DNA of 50,144 bases, from IMG/VR virus record IMGVR_UViG_3300025607_000091, positions 1 to 50,144 of that record. One strand, given 5' to 3'. The notes under the pieces are model-generated. The model did not search any database and was not told where the DNA came from. It worked only from the letters and a program-made list of their open reading frames with translations. The position numbers were made by a program, and so were the translations under genes. Origin of the DNA: a virus (Duplodnaviria > Caudoviricetes). Positions 9,595 to 22,298 of this stretch are shown here, piece after piece (the stretch's first letter is position 1; every line of letters begins with the position of its first letter).

Positions 9595-10032
9595 ATGAGT
9601 TTAGCTACCAATAACCGAAACAGAGCTTTTATAAACTTAATAGACAAGTTGCCTGCAAAAAGGCAATATGTATACAGTTTAATCAAAGAGAATGAACCTT
9701 GCACACTTGAATATTTGTGTAATAAATACGGATTAGAAAAAAACGTATCTGGAAGACTTACTGAATTAAAAAGCTCTTGTTTGATTATGGAATTTGGGAG
9801 CAAAATAAATGAAGTAACTAATAATCAAAACACGCTTTATAGAACTGTAGGAAATGATGAAAGAATCAACTTAATCAATTTAAACTATGGTGAGTTAATT
9901 GAAAAGAAAGACGCTTTGATTAATGATTACAATTTAGGAATGAGCAGTTTTTCACGTGAGCTTTTAGATAAGGAGTTGAAGAAAATCAAAAGCAAGATTA
10001 AGAACCTTGAAAACATTTTAGATGCAGCATAA
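9595..10032 (+). CDS. Winged-HTH DNA-binding protein
   Basis: PCTLEYLCNKYGLEKNVSGRLTELK. Confidence 0.55.
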   Translation: MSLATNNRNRAFINLIDKLPAKRQYVYSLIKENEPCTLEYLCNKYGLEKNVSGRLTELKSSCLIMEFGSKINEVTNNQNTLYRTVGNDERINLINLNYGELIEKKDALINDYNLGMSSFSRELLDKELKKIKSKIKNLENILDAA

Positions 10033-10708
10033 ACAAAAACCATGCGAGCCAAACAGTAAAGCTCCAGGAGCTGAAGGTTGTGGAAAGCCATCTTTTAAAA
10101 GAACTTATGGCTTGTGTGATTGTTGTTTAATGGAATGGGCCACAACAACTGAGAACGGTAAAATTTGGTATCAAAAAACATTTCTTCCAAGGGTTGCTAC
10201 GAAAGTAAAGTTAAACCAAAAGAAGAAAGAAAAAGCTCAAAAGGACCAGTTAACAGATTGGGGTAAAAAGCTTCAAGATAAGGTTAACGAAATAGTAAGG
10301 CTTATTGATATTGGATTACCGTGTTTGGCAAGAGGTTATCACGCGAATCAGATTCATGCAGGACATGTATTTGCAAGAGGAGGAAATCAAACGATCAGAT
10401 TCAATTTACACAATATACATCGTCAATCAGCTCAATCAAATACTTATCAAAATGATGATGGATTATTAAGAGAAGGATTAGTAAAAGAATACGGTCAAAA
10501 GTATTTTGAATTTATTAGCGAATTAAGGCAAACACCATCTTTAAGCTATTTAAACTTAGAATACCAAGATAAGTATCAATTAGCGAGTAAAATCGCTTTA
10601 AAGCTTAAAAAAGAAGGTAGGGTTTTCAATTTAAAAGAAAGAGTTGAAACAAGGAATAAAATAAACTTAGAGCTATCTATTTACGATTACAAGTATTGTG
10701 TAGCATAG
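10022..10708 (+). CDS. ninG: NinG/Rap-like recombination nuclease
   Basis: VRLIDIGLPC...HAGH...RFNLHNIHRQ. Confidence 0.7.
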   Translation: MQHKQKPCEPNSKAPGAEGCGKPSFKRTYGLCDCCLMEWATTTENGKIWYQKTFLPRVATKVKLNQKKKEKAQKDQLTDWGKKLQDKVNEIVRLIDIGLPCLARGYHANQIHAGHVFARGGNQTIRFNLHNIHRQSAQSNTYQNDDGLLREGLVKEYGQKYFEFISELRQTPSLSYLNLEYQDKYQLASKIALKLKKEGRVFNLKERVETRNKINLELSIYDYKYCVA

Positions 10709-14588: not shown

Positions 14589-15071
14589 ATGAACACTCTA
14601 GAAATTAAAAAAGAAGATGCTTTAAAAGCGCACGAAAACGCATCAAGTAAAGGAAAAACATTGCTTGAAAATTTATTAGGTAAAAAAACTTTTCAGAAAA
14701 AAGTAACTGACCGTATTAAAACAATTAAAGATGTTTTAGAATACAATGGTATTTCTGAAGAAGAACGAAGTGAAAAATACATGCTGTTCTTTGATAATTT
14801 AAAGTTGCCACATTTATACTATCAATGGTTAGCAGAATTACTATGCAAATCATTAAATGAGGATTGGACTCCTGATTGGGATAATTCAAATGAGCGTAAA
14901 TACTTTCCTTGGTTTAAAATGTGTTCTGGTGGTTTCCGTTATGACGACTTCGCTTATTGGCTTACGGGTTCGAGTGTCGGCTCTCGCCTTTGCTTAAAAT
15001 CGGATGAATTAGCAAAGTATGCCGGAACCCAATTCACAGAAGTTTACGAACAATTTATGATAACTAAATAA
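14589..15071 (+). CDS. DGR target protein 1 (160 aa)
   Basis: Contains VR1; KYFPWF...VGSRLC motif shared with target 2. Confidence 0.9.
   Translation: MNTLEIKKEDALKAHENASSKGKTLLENLLGKKTFQKKVTDRIKTIKDVLEYNGISEEERSEKYMLFFDNLKLPHLYYQWLAELLCKSLNEDWTPDWDNSNERKYFPWFKMCSGGFRYDDFAYWLTGSSVGSRLCLKSDELAKYAGTQFTEVYEQFMITK
14923..14993 (+). repeat. DGR variable repeat VR1
   Basis: 71-bp copy of TR with 12 mismatches, all at TR adenines. Confidence 0.95.
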
Positions 15072-15082
15072 TACATATTACA

Positions 15083-15481
15083 ATGAAAAAATTTACAGAT
15101 TTAAAAACATTTGAACAAGCGTGTGAGTTATTAAATATTGACTCAAAAACAGTATTACCAGACTTTTCAAATTACCCTGAGCAGGGCAGATTAGCTATGA
15201 TAGCTCATGCTAAATTACCAATTATAGTAAGAGCTGCTAACAAGCTTGCAAACGATGGAGAGGAAGTTGTTTTTGATTTCAATGATTCTAGCCAATGTAA
15301 ATATGAACCTTGGTTTGATATGGAAGATTATTCAGACGGTTCTGGTGGTTTCCGTTTTAACGGCTACGATGGTTGGCTTGCGACTTCGCTTGTCGGCTCT
15401 CGCCTTTGCTACATTTCAAGAGAAGTGTGCGAATACACAGTGAATCAGTTTATAGAGGTGTACAAAGCTTATTTTAAATAA
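15083..15481 (+). CDS. DGR target protein 2 (132 aa), paralog of target 1
   Basis: Contains VR2; KYEPWF...VGSRLC. Confidence 0.9.
   Translation: MKKFTDLKTFEQACELLNIDSKTVLPDFSNYPEQGRLAMIAHAKLPIIVRAANKLANDGEEVVFDFNDSSQCKYEPWFDMEDYSDGSGGFRFNGYDGWLATSLVGSRLCYISREVCEYTVNQFIEVYKAYFK
15339..15409 (+). repeat. DGR variable repeat VR2
   Basis: 71-bp copy of TR with 13 mismatches, all at TR adenines. Confidence 0.95.
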
Positions 15482-15490
15482 TATAAATAT

Positions 15491-15687
15491 AGGTTGTGTG
15501 ATGTGTTGAGCGCAGTTCTGGTAGTTTCCGTTATAACGACTACGATAATTGGCATACGAATTCGAATGTCAGCTCTCACCTATGCAAAAAGAAAATAACA
15601 TCACAAACCTTGCACGCAATGCAAAAAATTACAAACCTAATCAAGGCGTTGGTACTACTATGGAAAGCGACTTATTAAAGCAAAGGA
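15491..15687 (+). ncRNA. Putative structured TR-containing RNA of the DGR (ends approximate)
   Basis: AGGTTgTGTGATGT (15491-15504) can pair with ACATCACAAACCT (15598-15610); TTGCA-cgcaa-TGCAA hairpin follows. Confidence 0.55.
15515..15585 (+). repeat. DGR template repeat (TR)
   Basis: Intergenic GTTCTGGTAGTTTCCGTTATAACGACTACGATAATTGGCATACGAATTCGAATGTCAGCTCTCACCTATGC; 18 adenines, rich in AAY codons, upstream of the RT. Confidence 0.95.
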
Positions 15688-16650
15688 ATGAAACGAATAG
15701 GTAATTTATATCAGAAAATAATCAGTATTGAAAACTTGCAATTAGCAGATGTTGTAGCTCAAAAAAATAAAAGCAAACAGTATGGTGTGCAATCACACAA
15801 CTCAAAAAGTGATGCTAATATTTGGGAGTTACACAAAATGCTCAGGGATAAAACATATGCAACATCAAAGTATGACGTATTTAAAGTATATGAACCAAAG
15901 GAGCGAGAAGTTTACAGATTGCCATATTTTCCTGATAGAATAACACATCATGCAATCATGAATGTGTTGGAACCAATATTCGTTGCAAATTTTACAGCGG
16001 ACACATACAGTTGCATTAAGGGTAGAGGAATACATAAAGTACTTAAAAATGTAAAAAAGGCTTTAAAAGATGAAATAAATACGGTCTACTGTTTGAAATT
16101 AGATATTAAAAAATTCTACCCGAACATTGACCATGAAATTTTAAAGCAATTATTGCGAAAGAAATTTAAGGATCAGGATTTGCTTTGGCTATTAGATGAA
16201 ATTATTGATAGTGCAAAAGGATTACCAATAGGTAATTATTTAAGTCAATATTTTGCGAATTTTTACTTGTCATATTTTGACCATTGGATCAAGTAGCAAA
16301 AAGCAGTTAAGTATTATTTCCGTTATGCTGATGACATTGTAATACTTCATAAGGACAAAGAATACTTACATAAGATACTTGCTGAAATAAGCTATTACCT
16401 AAACACTAATTTAAAGTTATCGGTAAAAGGTAACTATCAAGTATTTCCAGTAGCATCTAGAGGGATTGATTTTGTAGGATATAGAATTTACCACACGCAT
16501 GTATTATTAAGAAAACGAATCAAACAAAACTTTGCTAGAAAACTAAAAAAGAAGCCAAACTCTTCTTGTATCGCATCATATTTAGGATGGCTAAAACATT
16601 GTGACGCGTTGAACTTAACCAAAAAATTATTGCCAAATGAACAATTTTAA
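15688..16650 (+). pseudogene. DGR reverse transcriptase (320 codons) interrupted by in-frame TAG at 16294-16296
   Basis: PKER, DRITHHA, LKLDIKKFYP, GLPIGNYLSQ motifs; after the TAG the same frame reads QKAVKYYFRYADDIVIL...GIDFVGY...SYLGWLKH to TAA at 16650. Confidence 0.9.
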
Positions 16651-18807: not shown

Positions 18808-19863
18808 ATGATAAACTTATATCAAACAAACATCGAACAATTATCAATTCATCAAGTAGGGAATAAGAGCAAAGCAGAAGGATGTTTTGTTTCAGATAGC
18901 ACTACAGAGTTAAATGATGAAATAGCACCATTAGTAAAAGATTTCTTCTTTAGGCCATTTAGGGAAAAGGAAGAAGTATTTTTTAATTTCTCACACGAAG
19001 TTGATGTAGCGTACAATGAGGTTTTTAAAACTTCTGAATCAATTTTTAATAATCCAAACTGTTTTCATGAGAAGTCAAAAGATATAGTAGGTCTTCTGTA
19101 TAATGAATCAATGCACCCACACATTAAAGGAGGTGAAGTTTATGTTACTTATTTAGATAATGTAATTATCGACAATCAAAAAGTTAATGCAATCGGAATA
19201 TTTAAAAGTGAGCTTAAGCATGATTTCCTACAATTCGAAAACAAAGGAAAAAACATGGAGACAATTTTACAACAAGGAGTTAATCTTAAAAAATTAGACA
19301 AAGGTTGTATCATTTTTAATATCGAAAAAGAAAGTGGTTACAGAGTTTTAAGCGTTGATAGTAACAAGTACGATACTAAGTACTGGTTAAATAGTTTCCT
19401 TGGCCTAGATGCTGTGATTGATGATGCTTATCAAACTAAGAAATACCTTCAATTATGTCAAAACTTCGCAAAAGATGTTGTTTTTCCTGCGGAAGACAAA
19501 AAGGAAGAAGTTATGTTCATGAATCGTTCAATGGATTATTTCGCCAAAAACGATGAGTTTGAAGAAACGGAATATTTAAACGTCGTTGTAGAGAATCCAG
19601 ATCTTATTCCAGAATTCAAACACTATAAATCAGAGAATGAACAAAAATACAGTGTAGAGGACCTAACTCAGTTTCCTATTTCAAATACTGCCGTTACTAC
19701 TTCAAGGAAAAAGATTAAAAATGAAATAAAACTAGACACAAACATGTCTATAAAATTAGACTTTATTAATCCCGATTCTGCTGAGAAATTCCTTGAGAAA
19801 GGTTGGGACGAAGAAAAGCAAATGTATTACTACTTATGTTACTTCAACAAAGAGGAGAAGTAA
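18808..19863 (+). CDS. Nucleoid-associated protein (NdpA/YejK-like)
   Basis: LSIHQVGNK, HPHIKGGEVYV, IGIFKSE, KLDKGCIIFN, YWLNSFL, EKGWDEEKQMYYY. Confidence 0.75.
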   Translation: MINLYQTNIEQLSIHQVGNKSKAEGCFVSDSTTELNDEIAPLVKDFFFRPFREKEEVFFNFSHEVDVAYNEVFKTSESIFNNPNCFHEKSKDIVGLLYNESMHPHIKGGEVYVTYLDNVIIDNQKVNAIGIFKSELKHDFLQFENKGKNMETILQQGVNLKKLDKGCIIFNIEKESGYRVLSVDSNKYDTKYWLNSFLGLDAVIDDAYQTKKYLQLCQNFAKDVVFPAEDKKEEVMFMNRSMDYFAKNDEFEETEYLNVVVENPDLIPEFKHYKSENEQKYSVEDLTQFPISNTAVTTSRKKIKNEIKLDTNMSIKLDFINPDSAEKFLEKGWDEEKQMYYYLCYFNKEEK

Positions 19864-19988
19864 TGGAAGAAAAATCATATCAAATCACTAGAGGTTATCA
19901 TGAGGAGTATGAAGAAATTACTCCTCTCTCTGGAAAGAAAAAAAGAAGATTAAAAAGAAAGAAACAACGCAACAAAACTAAACGATGA
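19863..19988 (+). CDS. Small basic protein
   Basis: TAATG overlap; ends SGKKKRRLKRKKQRNKTKR. Confidence 0.45.
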   Translation: MEEKSYQITRGYHEEYEEITPLSGKKKRRLKRKKQRNKTKR

Positions 19989-20191
19989 AAGCAGAAGAGT
20001 TTTACAAAGACTTTACAGATAGAAATAACCCTGACATTAACCGAAAAGGTAAAAGCACAAGAGAATTACTTTACCAAATGATGGAAGAATACGCAGACCA
20101 TAAGAAATTAAATATAGGTGTTGTTAGCACCTGTACGGATTTGAAAACTAAAAACTTAATAAGATGGGATACATTAAACACAACGCAATAG
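19985..20191 (+). CDS. ORF reading into module M1
   Basis: KKLNIGVV, with GTT 20123 in frame. Confidence 0.55.
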   Translation: MKAEEFYKDFTDRNNPDINRKGKSTRELLYQMMEEYADHKKLNIGVVSTCTDLKTKNLIRWDTLNTTQ

Positions 20192-20498
20192 TTTGCACAA
20201 CTTGGAAAGAAGAGGATGCTATTGAAGCACAGCAAAAAGCAAAAGAAAAGGTAGTAGCCAATTAGTATCTGAATTAGTAGAATACATTGTTAATGGTGGA
20301 TATAGTTTCTTTATAGCACCTGATGGAAGCAAGGAAGGTTGGGAAGATAGTAAACAATGTGATGGTGCGAGAAAAGATTTCTTGGATTGGTTGAAAGAAT
20401 CTGACAACTATTGCGATTACATAGAAGTTAGGTTTGGTGGAGATGATGAACACGAAGACATCGTAAGAAGCAAAGACACCGATTACGATACAATGTAG
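20164..20498 (+). pseudogene. Frameshifted cargo gene of module M1
   Basis: MGYIKHNAIVCTTW... stops at 20263-20265; the -1 frame continues LVSELVEYIVNGGYSFFIAPDGSKEGWEDS... to TAG 20498. Confidence 0.6.
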
Positions 20499-20555
20499 TA
20501 TTGGTGCTAATGGGTAGGTGTATGGTTAGATTTTTAACGAGTAAATAAAGAACAA

Positions 20556-20819
20556 ATGGAACTAAATACAGCAATTGAAATATTAGATTACCACCAAGAA
20601 TGGAGGCAAGGAAAAAGAGAAGATATGATTCATGAACCTAAAAAACTAACAAAAGCCTTGGATATTGTGCTGAGTGAGATTAAAAAATTAAATATACATA
20701 GTGTTATTATGCGAAGCGAACAGTTAGGCTGTGCATGTAAAAACCAACCAAGGTCAATTTTTGGATACACTTGGAAAACTTGCAAAGCCTGTGGAAAAAC
20801 CTCATTAATGCCTAATTGA
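20556..20819 (+). CDS. Linker ORF fused to a Cys-rich tail encoded by module M2
   Basis: KKLNIHSV-IMRSEQLGCAC...CKACG; GTT 20703 in frame. Confidence 0.6.
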   Translation: MELNTAIEILDYHQEWRQGKREDMIHEPKKLTKALDIVLSEIKKLNIHSVIMRSEQLGCACKNQPRSIFGYTWKTCKACGKTSLMPN

Positions 20820-20867
20820 TTATAACGGAATACAGATAAGATTTTTTGCGAATAAAAAACAAACAAG

Positions 20868-21023
20868 ATGAAGAAAAAAGATTTAATAAAACAATTAGCA
20901 AATAGAATAAACCAACCCCATGTAATAGAAAGTTGGATTGATAAAATAGAAAAAGCAGCCTACAATAAAGGCATTAAAGATACAGAAGCTAAGCAATTAA
21001 TTTTATCTGGTGTTGGCAATTGA
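20868..21023 (+). CDS. 51-aa linker ORF (not in ORF track)
   Basis: MKKKDLIKQLANR...KQLILSGVGN; GTT 21012 in frame. Confidence 0.5.
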   Translation: MKKKDLIKQLANRINQPHVIESWIDKIEKAAYNKGIKDTEAKQLILSGVGN

Positions 21024-21083
21024 TAAAAAGCCACTTAGTGACGTAGGAACTAAAATATTTACAAACAAACTAAAAAATAAATT

Positions 21084-21419
21084 ATGAAAGCAACTCATTT
21101 AGTAAAAAGTAACAACATTGAAAAGCAAATTATTAAACAAAAAGAAAAGGTAATAATTCCTTTAAATAAAATTATTGATTACAGGTATAAACAACGCTTG
21201 GTAGTTGCTAAAGGTTTTTTAGAGGAAGAAAGAAATTTTGGAACTAAAAAAGAGCCAATTATGAAAATTGTAAAATTTATGCAATATGATGATTATTTTA
21301 CTGATGAAGATACAGGAGAAGTTGTTACCGTTAAGAGACACGAAAAAATTGAAATAGATGGTGAAAAATGCGACCATTTTGGAAATTTAATAAAATATTA
21401 CACAATAGATGACCTTTAG
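21084..21419 (+). CDS. Cargo gene of module M3, hypothetical
   Basis: 111-aa ORF inside 23-bp IRs; FTDEDTGEVVTVKR. Confidence 0.6.
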   Translation: MKATHLVKSNNIEKQIIKQKEKVIIPLNKIIDYRYKQRLVVAKGFLEEERNFGTKKEPIMKIVKFMQYDDYFTDEDTGEVVTVKRHEKIEIDGEKCDHFGNLIKYYTIDDL

Positions 21420-21541
21420 ATTAGCCCGTATGAGTGAGGTGGCTTTTTATTTGTTGCCAACGATAAATGTAAAAAGCGTTTTAATGCCTTTTACACCTTG
21501 TTAGCACAAGTACGGGGTATTAATTACTAAACTTAATTAAA

Positions 21542-21910
21542 ATGAATTACAAAATAGATTACAAAGGATTGAAAGAGTTTTTAGAAACGCTTACGTACCG
21601 AAGCATAAAAGATGGTGCATTGGTTAAAGCACACGCAAGAAATGACATTGACTTTTTCTATAAAACAGATGAAGACAAAAGCAAAATAACATTAAACCAA
21701 GTTATTGAATATGGACAGCCATTTTTAGTAGATGCTATTGGAAATGATTTATCTGTTTGTGTTCTGACTAAAAGAAAATACAAACTACCTACTGGAAGAG
21801 TAGTAAGAATGAAATTTGATGCTACAATAATAGACGATTGCAGAAAGGTTTTAGGAAGCCCTGTAAACAACTATTATGTAATACCAGACAGATTTATAGT
21901 ACGAACTTAG
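21542..21910 (+). CDS. Cargo gene of module M4, hypothetical
   Basis: 122-aa ORF whose TAG overlaps the right IR. Confidence 0.6.
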   Translation: MNYKIDYKGLKEFLETLTYRSIKDGALVKAHARNDIDFFYKTDEDKSKITLNQVIEYGQPFLVDAIGNDLSVCVLTKRKYKLPTGRVVRMKFDATIIDDCRKVLGSPVNNYYVIPDRFIVRT

Positions 21911-21980
21911 TATTTGTGCTAATGTTAAATGTATGTTTTGTGCGTGAATAATTAATGAATTAAATAAAAAACAAATAAAG

Positions 21981-22256
21981 ATGAAAGCAATGGATTTTAT
22001 AAAAAGTATTGATGCAAAAGTTATTAACGGAATATTAAAAAGTTATAGCGATGAAGAAGCGATAAAGCACTTAAAAGAACACCTACAAAAGCAATTAAAT
22101 ACACATGATGTTAGCAGTAGTAGTGAAGAATTAACTAACGAAAGGAAAATAGAAAAATATAACGAAATAGCTATAATCATGAAAAGGACTTATAAAGAAA
22201 ACCTAAGCTCAGAAGACATGCACGCCATGATTGTAAAAGTAACAGCCTATGAATAA
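21981..22256 (+). CDS. Linker ORF fused to a tail encoded by module M5
   Basis: KQLNTHDV-SSSSEEL...; GTT 22110 in frame; stop overlaps the right IR. Confidence 0.6.
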   Translation: MKAMDFIKSIDAKVINGILKSYSDEEAIKHLKEHLQKQLNTHDVSSSSEELTNERKIEKYNEIAIIMKRTYKENLSSEDMHAMIVKVTAYE

Positions 22257-22298
22257 CTATTACTGCTAACAAGCGTATATAACAACTTTTACAGAAGC

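Follow-up and report, generated by a model that had tools for sequence, protein, structure and literature searches.

A putative integrase-less array of integron-like gene cassettes in a marine flavobacterial prophage

Five modules and their linkers

The window analysed here is the whole 50,144-base stretch of the IMG/VR provirus record IMGVR_UViG_3300025607_000091, a marine flavobacterial prophage with a G+C content of ~31%, and its region of interest lies at 19985-22270, where five modules, M1 to M5, each extend from GTT to AAY. All five, with their arms, lie where a sequence-only reading of the same DNA had placed them. Alternating with linkers, several of which carry open reading frames (ORFs), these modules are probably five small gene cassettes arranged in an array that has no integrase of its own.

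The array, all parts of which lie on the plus strand, opens with a linker-type ORF segment (19985-20122) that has a conserved 31-nt repeat at its end and an N-domain ORF (19985-20191) reading into M1. Cassette M1 (20123-20511) is bounded by arms at 20123-20136 and 20498-20511, with a G.T pair at position 11, and is followed by the 191-nt ORF-bearing linker B1 (20512-20702), which has a weak stem (20519-20537/20680-20698) and holds the start of an ORF (20556-20819). Cassette M2 (20703-20826) continues in frame from this ORF, contributing a Cys-rich tail, and has degenerate arms. The 185-nt ORF-bearing linker B2 (20827-21011), with a stem at 20833-20849/20993-21009 and an ORF at 20868-21023, leads to M3 (21012-21461), whose arms (21012-21034 and 21439-21461) enclose the cargo ORF 21084-21419. 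Between M3 and M4 lies a short S-type linker (21462-21499), in which a stem (21468-21476/21487-21495) presents the loop CGTTTTAATG (21477-21486); together with its flanking ..CCAAC and GTTAGC.. it forms the most attC-like junction of the window. Cassette M4 (21500-21923) has arms at 21500-21513 and 21910-21923 and a cargo ORF at 21542-21910, and the 186-nt ORF-bearing linker B3 (21924-22109) beyond it has a weak stem and the start of an ORF (21981-22256) that continues in frame into M5 (22110-22270; arms 22110-22124 and 22256-22270). M5 is the last cassette, and its AAC is followed by A, not G.

The ends of individual modules pair extensively with each other. The repeat search finds the 23-nt M3 arms to be 87% complementary and the M5 arms, extended by it to 16 nt (22109-22124/22256-22271), to be 94% complementary, while an inverted-repeat scan counts 11 Watson-Crick pairs, 2 G.T pairs and 1 mismatch over 14 nt in M1, and 14 Watson-Crick pairs, 4 G.T pairs and 1 mismatch over 19 nt in M4. 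Duplex energies between a module's own ends are -18.6 kcal/mol for M1, -34.0 for M3, -21.4 for M4 and -21.7 for M5, compared with only -4 to -17 kcal/mol for the ends of mismatched module pairs. The earlier description of five modules with end-to-end complementary arms therefore holds for these four; the M2 duplex is weak (-8.9 kcal/mol), no better than background. Because the imperfections are G.T pairs, the arm duplexes are always more stable on the plus strand. The linkers carry the second inverted repeat that had been described for them, namely a 17-nt repeat of 82% complementarity in B2 and a 19-nt repeat of 79% in B1 (repeat search), with stem duplex energies of -10.5 kcal/mol for B1, -18.3 for B2 and -10.0 for B3.

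Inverted repeats anchored on GTT and AAY are not special by themselves. A generic GTT..AAY scan returns 103 pairs in the window, so this criterion alone does not single out the array, and M1 taken alone is background. A motif-specific scan of ~537 kb of distinct sequence (ends GTTRGYA/TRCYAAY, score at least 11) is far more selective, its pairs being limited to the window array (three, all in 21012-22270), the phage Leef_1 (three) and the related contig L015 (two). Under a family-signature criterion, which tolerates no more than one non-Watson-Crick pair among positions 2-10 and requires G.T at position 11 and Watson-Crick pairing at position 12, the window has four matches, three of them inside 2.5 kb (mean over 300 dinucleotide shuffles, 0.95), and three matches inside 2.5 kb arise in 1 of the 300 shuffles; the criterion leaves out M3, the strongest arm pair. 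The proposed comparison with shuffled sequence thus sets this cluster apart. The position-11 mark is present in M1, M3, M4 and M5, and it is this G.T pair after about ten Watson-Crick pairs that lifts the four arm pairs above chance. Other signature matches in the window (18600, 23966, 24932, 25411, 25920, 34776 and others) lie inside ORFs and are judged to be chance.

End signature and linker hairpins across loci

A census of 2.03 Mb of oriented loci, scored blind to G.T versus A.C, yields 157 distinct signature cassettes, which are spread over 79 loci and are 98-2003 nt long (median 267 nt). Where positions 2-10 and 12 are all Watson-Crick, position 11 holds G (5') and T (3') in 157 arm pairs and a Watson-Crick pair in 42, the rest being A.C (5), T.G (4), C.A (2) and other combinations (6). 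At positions 5-10 and 12, by comparison, each wobble class (G.T, T.G, A.C, C.A) occurs at most 5 times, and other mismatches reach a maximum of 18 (position 12). A T precedes GTT in 153 of the 157 signature cassettes and a G follows AAC in 132, placing the cassette limits between T and GTTA at one end and between TAAC and G at the other, with a cassette's own ends complementary over 12-25 nt. The resulting searchable signature is T before the limit, then GTTA, five variable bases and (A/C)GT at one end, and AT(T/G), five variable bases and TAAC, then G after the limit, at the other.

The same census bears on invertible segments of the inverton or shufflon type, which would switch genes or C-termini and which the sequence-only reading had entertained. 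Inverted repeats of 14-25 nt flanking 150-450 nt segments, and N-terminal ORFs reading into alternative modules, are what such a device would present. Its segments would not, however, keep the position-11 polarity fixed (157 against 5 of the mirror A.C), carry phage cassette ORFs in the sense direction in 79 of 80 decided cases, or have arms that differ from cassette to cassette, and the contigs of four runs hold no strand-changing joints. With one orientation, one G.T polarity and no inverted copies seen, the inversion explanation is largely refuted and may be regarded as extremely improbable.

Regular arrays of cassette, ~115-nt linker and cassette occur in the contigs L011, L015 and L040, and the Polaribacter phage Leef_1 (L001) has additional cassettes, each with arms of its own, as well as repeated spacers of ~115 nt and, immediately downstream, an integrase. 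An integron-like system of this kind is likely to be widespread in Flavobacteriaceae and their phages.

Three types of hairpin linker join the cassettes, namely the S type (38 nt in the window), a type of ~115 nt, and the ORF-bearing type (185-191 nt). The elements of the 115-nt linker are, in order, ..TAAC G nn, a stem of 18-22 bp, a loop of ~74 nt, the returning stem and (T)GTTA. When 12 copies are aligned, compensatory changes are seen at 18 of the 20 pairs, and a single G.U has been retained by 11 of the 12. Its covariance model (R1) finds 21 copies, every one on the gene strand of phage contigs, and has no match in the window. In the S-type linker, the fixed loop is closed by a stem of 9-12 bp with AACG on one side and TGTTA on the other, and the pattern is found in at least 120 stretches in viral and at least 120 in bacterial genome collections. 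Among the matches listed, a good stem is formed in 112 of 138 viral and 51 of 127 genomic cases, with many compensatory changes and 141 distinct stems around the same loop. A generic scan for long hairpins over the 537 kb returns 50 on the plus and 55 on the minus strand, giving no overall strand bias. Near-identical S-type hairpins also stand singly and in both orientations at 11 places in a Pontimicrobium chromosome (G005), resembling repetitive extragenic palindromes or miniature inverted-repeat transposable elements rather than an array.

The ORF-bearing linkers of the window have ORFs of ~47 codons that continue into the cassette behind them, bearing out the earlier suggestion that the junction loops as well as the modules carry ORFs; gene 37 of Leef_1 and gene 37 of the Polaribacter phage P12002L are of the same kind. 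The linker 3' stem and the 5' arm of the next cassette together encode shared C-termini resembling KKLNIGVVS, corresponding to the direct repeat family D1, copies of which a repeat search places at 20099, 20679, 20988 and 22086. At L040 12750-13031, the cassette ORF starts in the loop of the preceding linker, and the linker 3' stem with the cassette 5' arm encodes a lipoprotein-like signal peptide (..SIVSC). In one contig of run X3, the 5' part of B1 is joined to its 3' stem, skipping 131 nt (20548 to 20680) that include the ORF start; with a weak, 27-nt shorter side, this join may represent an ORF-less version of the linker.

Exchange, recombinase and strand polarity

Cassettes are exchanged in a unit-like manner. 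M4 recurs at ~99% identity (4-6 differences per ~370-430 nt) in contigs of four public runs from four studies, and all four matches stop at 21922 (..GTGCTAA), continuing into differing linker-like sequences; the boundary nucleotide is identical in 4 of 4 runs, with only ~7 nt in common with other cassettes. Pieces matching the S linker are present in all four runs compared. A contig of run X4 matches the M1 cargo from 20366 to 20510 and likewise stops after GCTAA, so that these natural mosaic boundaries fall between GCTAA and C. In the metagenome contig L043, M4 stands behind an S linker with compensatory stem changes, and both the cassette end before that linker and the linker after M4 differ from those of the window. 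The breaks at AAY ends that the sequence-only reading had led one to look for are thus seen for M4 (the four metagenome runs and L043) and for M1 (one contig). Additionally, the M4 cargo has a homologue of 50% identity in a cassette whose arms are quite different but keep the G.T at position 11, and the end of that cassette is common to L050 and L051 before they continue into different linkers. Overall, arrays have linkers and arms in common but no cargo. The exact M4 3' end has no match in Joint Genome Institute metagenome contigs, and the M3 cargo has no relatives in viral contigs. Two insertion/deletion cases emerged among ~250 loci and were set aside, one in Helicobacter being unrelated and the other an ordinary gene insertion/deletion at ORF boundaries away from the arms.

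This mosaicism could instead come from conserved intergenic regulatory cassettes resembling promoter early stem-loops (PeSLs), which would provide short homology for general or phage recombination without any site-specific recombinase. Identical 47-nt S-type copies do recur inside single contigs (for example, five in L075), the same ends surround different cargo while cargo is found elsewhere without arms, and the window encodes a NinG/Rap-type junction nuclease (10022-10708). Homology handles, however, need neither self-complementarity nor covarying ends nor a G.T pair at a fixed position, and they do not readily give an M4 boundary at one nucleotide in all four runs with so little sequence in common, nor a dedicated recombinase and palindrome at chromosomal arrays. 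Weighed together, these points make the explanation an unlikely one.

The recombinase in question is seen most clearly in bacterial chromosomes. The Tenacibaculum chromosome L303 encodes a tyrosine recombinase of 269 aa and, after it on the same strand, a short palindrome and then seven cassettes of one ORF each, which have signature arms and are separated by S-type or 115-nt linkers. The same order of recombinase, palindrome and array is found in two Aquimarina genomes (L304 and L216) and in a fourth genome, L307, completing the four Flavobacteriaceae chromosomes read in detail; the palindrome, of the ATAAC..GTTAT type, lies between recombinase and first cassette in all four and is absent from the window. 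The co-occurring tyrosine recombinase that the sequence-only reading proposed to search for therefore exists as an Xer-like enzyme before chromosomal arrays, and a homologue stands beside three phage arrays (L001, that is Leef_1, L011 and L015). Six array-adjacent recombinases share 33-52% mutual identity and score 181-229 bits on the XerA/'integron integrase' model (cut-off 220). Their match to the integron-integrase model TIGR02249 falls into two stretches that skip approximately positions 180-240, indicating that the IntI-specific insert is missing. A member of the class at 268 bits or more occurs in 51 of 61 sampled Flavobacteriaceae genomes, well apart from the ordinary Xer-like matches of 140-197 bits, and all 14 linker-model matches, in 10 of 30 loci with only ~1.5 kb of flank each, are downstream of the recombinase and on the strand opposite to it. 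For at least 14 of the high-scoring recombinase genes, the start lies no more than ~800 nt from the contig's first base, and assemblies seem often to break beside the gene. Downstream of the Leef_1 integrase (L001 6906-7400) lie several direct and inverted copies of AAAGATTACAAAA, similar to attP arm-type binding sites, which suggest that the array-adjacent recombinase there also serves lysogeny.

Strand polarity is decisive for whether the structures are read as acting in RNA or in DNA. In phage and metagenome cassettes the long ORF lies on the G.T strand in 79 cases and on the other strand in 1 (51 undecided), while in bacterial-genome cassettes it lies on the other strand in 14 and on the G.T strand in 3 (9 undecided). 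The phage figures accord with structures in the mRNA, in which long-range stems around ORFs and hairpins between them would serve as RNase III-like processing or stabilising sites, or in translation control, within a polycistronic early transcript; the better-pairing strand is then the mRNA strand (79 sense, 1 antisense), and the non-Watson-Crick pairs of S-type stems, among the matches listed, are 39 G.T against 5 A.C on the phage coding strand. Arm pairing over 98-2003 nt is easy for RNA, stop codons lie in or beside the 3' arms, and mosaic boundaries both outside and just inside the arms would follow if only those recombinants survived that keep self-pairing modules intact. In chromosomes, however, elements of the same polarity are antisense to their cargo (14 against 3 sense), which is hard to square with a role in the cargo mRNA, and an mRNA function does not call for a homologous recombinase at the array end in four chromosomes and three phages. 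Furthermore, the 115-nt and S-type linkers have no relevant Rfam 15 match at E of 1 or below in 8 sources, and the ATG in the S loop is ruled out as a cargo start codon, with only 13 of 170 frames open for at least 40 codons. We consider this explanation improbable, to much the same degree as recombination through short homology, both being possible mainly for the phage context. The polarity data fit a strand-specific DNA structure of the integron-like kind.

Likeness to known systems, mechanism and surroundings

Integrons are the textbook bacterial device for collecting and shuffling genes, and the arrays described here share many of their features. Each cassette holds one ORF in a single orientation, and each junction runs from ..YTAAC through an imperfect hairpin to GTTAR.. 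with the R''/R' box order, in support of the sequence-only reading, which had proposed a cassette system with an attC-like loop. As in attC sites, structure is kept while sequence varies, fixed non-Watson-Crick features give strand polarity, each cassette start can pair with the box behind the ORF of that same cassette, the cargo is accessory, and a tyrosine recombinase of the Xer/IntI group stands at one end of chromosomal arrays. Only ~4-5 of the 7 positions of each box agree with the RYYYAAC...GTTRRRY consensus, however, and no L boxes or extrahelical bases were identified. Unlike integrons, the arrays have a recombinase that lacks the IntI insert, scores below the IntI cut-off and is co-directional with the cassettes; own ends complementary over 12-25 bp with G.T at position 11; linkers with a conserved loop (S), a ~74-nt loop (115-nt) or an ORF (window); cassettes that can move without the downstream linker; and phage cargo on the G.T strand.

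A closely related case has been described in the Polaribacter phage P12002L, for which the available text of Qi et al. 2023 (PMC9892861) reports a cluster of attC sites lacking an integrase (CALIN), with two predicted attC sites and two methyltransferases. There, the bottom strand of P12002L_attC2 recombined with attI1 by IntI1, with the junctions sequenced, while the top strand gave no recombinants (PMC9892861, available text). The methyltransferase region of P12002L carries S-type hairpins between ..TGCTAAC and GTTAGGC.., as well as an N-domain ORF reading into a cassette, from which we infer that the attC sites of that report (PMC9892861, available text) are S-type junctions. The earlier claim of an undescribed system is accordingly narrowed, since attC sites and a CALIN of the same design are in print for P12002L. 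The P12002L element was delimited as two sites by standard attC models, and the available text of the paper (PMC9892861) contains no mention seen of cassette-specific arms, the G.T signature, linker classes, the Xer-like recombinase or chromosomal arrays; more generally, no description of the loop motif, signature, linker classes or recombinase association was found in the searchable literature. Standard tools recover little in this group: the available text of the IntegronFinder 2.0 preprint gives Bacteroidetes only In0 elements and one complete integron, and, according to the available text of a paper on a Tenacibaculum genome, IntegronFinder detected no integrons there.

Two further systems offer partial parallels. 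The PeSL cassettes of T4-type phages (PMC2839356, available text) are likewise repeated intergenic stem-loops that flank small accessory ORFs and mark boundaries of insertion, deletion and replacement; they differ in being direct repeats for homologous recombination, no promoter having been identified here, and the available text was found to describe neither cassette-specific end complementarity nor a dedicated recombinase. In the CTX phage, XerCD integrates folded single-stranded DNA, providing a precedent for an Xer-family recombinase acting on a one-strand hairpin; the CTX phage uses a single site for integration of the whole phage at dif, as opposed to the gene-cassette arrays described here.

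Collectively, the data show how the array is built, that its elements are conserved and that cassettes are exchanged in a unit-like way. The best reading of the region at 19985-22270 is that it belongs to an integron-like cassette system and forms an array without an integrase, a reading we hold to be fairly likely. Under this reading, the sites would act as folded single-stranded DNA, and an Xer-like recombinase, supplied in trans for the window prophage, would cut and join at the TAAC/GTTA boxes, so that cassettes could be inserted, lost and exchanged. The window linkers may also provide a start codon and a ~47-residue peptide that can be fused to the incoming cassette. A fuller and more tentative proposal, which we put somewhat below an even chance, is that Flavobacteriaceae and their phages possess a distinct analogue of the integron, with its own Xer-family recombinase lacking the IntI domain, a palindromic docking site, attC-like junctions and G.T-marked ends; that in most genomes of the family it stands beside a single conserved recombinase gene and is missed by standard integron finders; and that phages use it to trade anti-defence and accessory genes in flipped orientation, with linkers donating N-terminal peptides.

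Several observations weigh against the integron-like reading. No homologue of the array-adjacent recombinase was found in the window, the array-adjacent recombinases reach only 122-204 bits on TIGR02249, below its cut-off of 265, and no IntI above cut-off is present in any of the 10 Flavobacteriia genomes holding such elements. The folding strand of integrons is the strand opposite the cassette ORFs, whereas in phages it is the G.T strand that encodes the cargo, and for the S hairpin of the window the minus-strand fold is slightly the more stable (-9.4 against -7.4 kcal/mol). The sequence-conserved S loop and the ~74-nt loop of the 115-nt class are both atypical of attC. M4 moves without its downstream linker, which the canonical integron unit does not. 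Other breaks lie inside the arms and so depart from the expected AAY positions: phage Leef_1 has the M3 ends, nearly unchanged, around a different ORF, run X1 has an identical M1 5' arm and leader before another ORF, and M4 cargo homologues (80-82% identity) occur in L041 and L042 without any arms. No circles or rearranged joints at arms were found in the metagenome contigs of the four runs. Finally, the main text available for the P12002L study (PMC9892861) gives no coordinates, so which sites were assayed there rests on inference.

If the exchange is indeed driven by the recombinase, a major marine bacterial family and its phages would have a parallel cassette system built on a different enzyme, in a phylum, Bacteroidota, from which integrons are almost absent by standard tools. 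Such a system would explain in concrete terms how flavobacterial phages come to have hypervariable early regions, and would offer a route of phage-host exchange for methyltransferases, TIR, immunity and other defence-related genes. The signature makes the system searchable, and the recombinase provides a direct experimental handle.

The cargo is in keeping with accessory genes. Among 142 cassette ORFs are seven DNA methyltransferases (five N6_N4 methylases, one MT-A70 and one D12), ~130 have no Pfam match, and chromosomal cassettes include TIR, SUKH-1, PhoD, HNH and thioredoxin proteins. No known function is assigned to the cargo of the window cassettes. The M1 cargo (20164-20498) is a single phrog_11375 gene divided in two where the reading frame shifts, in a run of A near 20240-20260; a pseudogene, a sequencing error or slippage could account for this.

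The surroundings of the array agree with the earlier statement that no integron integrase is adjacent. The sole integrase of the window, a tyrosine integrase at 1-1209, is distant from the array, and no integrase lies within ~19 kb of the four junctions (20512-22109). Small plus-strand ORFs run downstream of a nucleoid-associated protein gene (18808-19863). The shares of public runs that match the window are all small (at most 0.10), no habitat is claimed from them, and no RNA run is listed among these runs. Elsewhere in the window, 14589-16650 is likely to hold a diversity-generating retroelement. The neighbouring ORFs 14589-15071 and 15083-15481 have near-identical terminal repeats, with an A-richer third copy at ~15515-15590, and are followed by a reverse transcriptase ORF (15688-16296, RVT_1) that has an in-frame TAG and reads on to ~16650 with a YADD motif.

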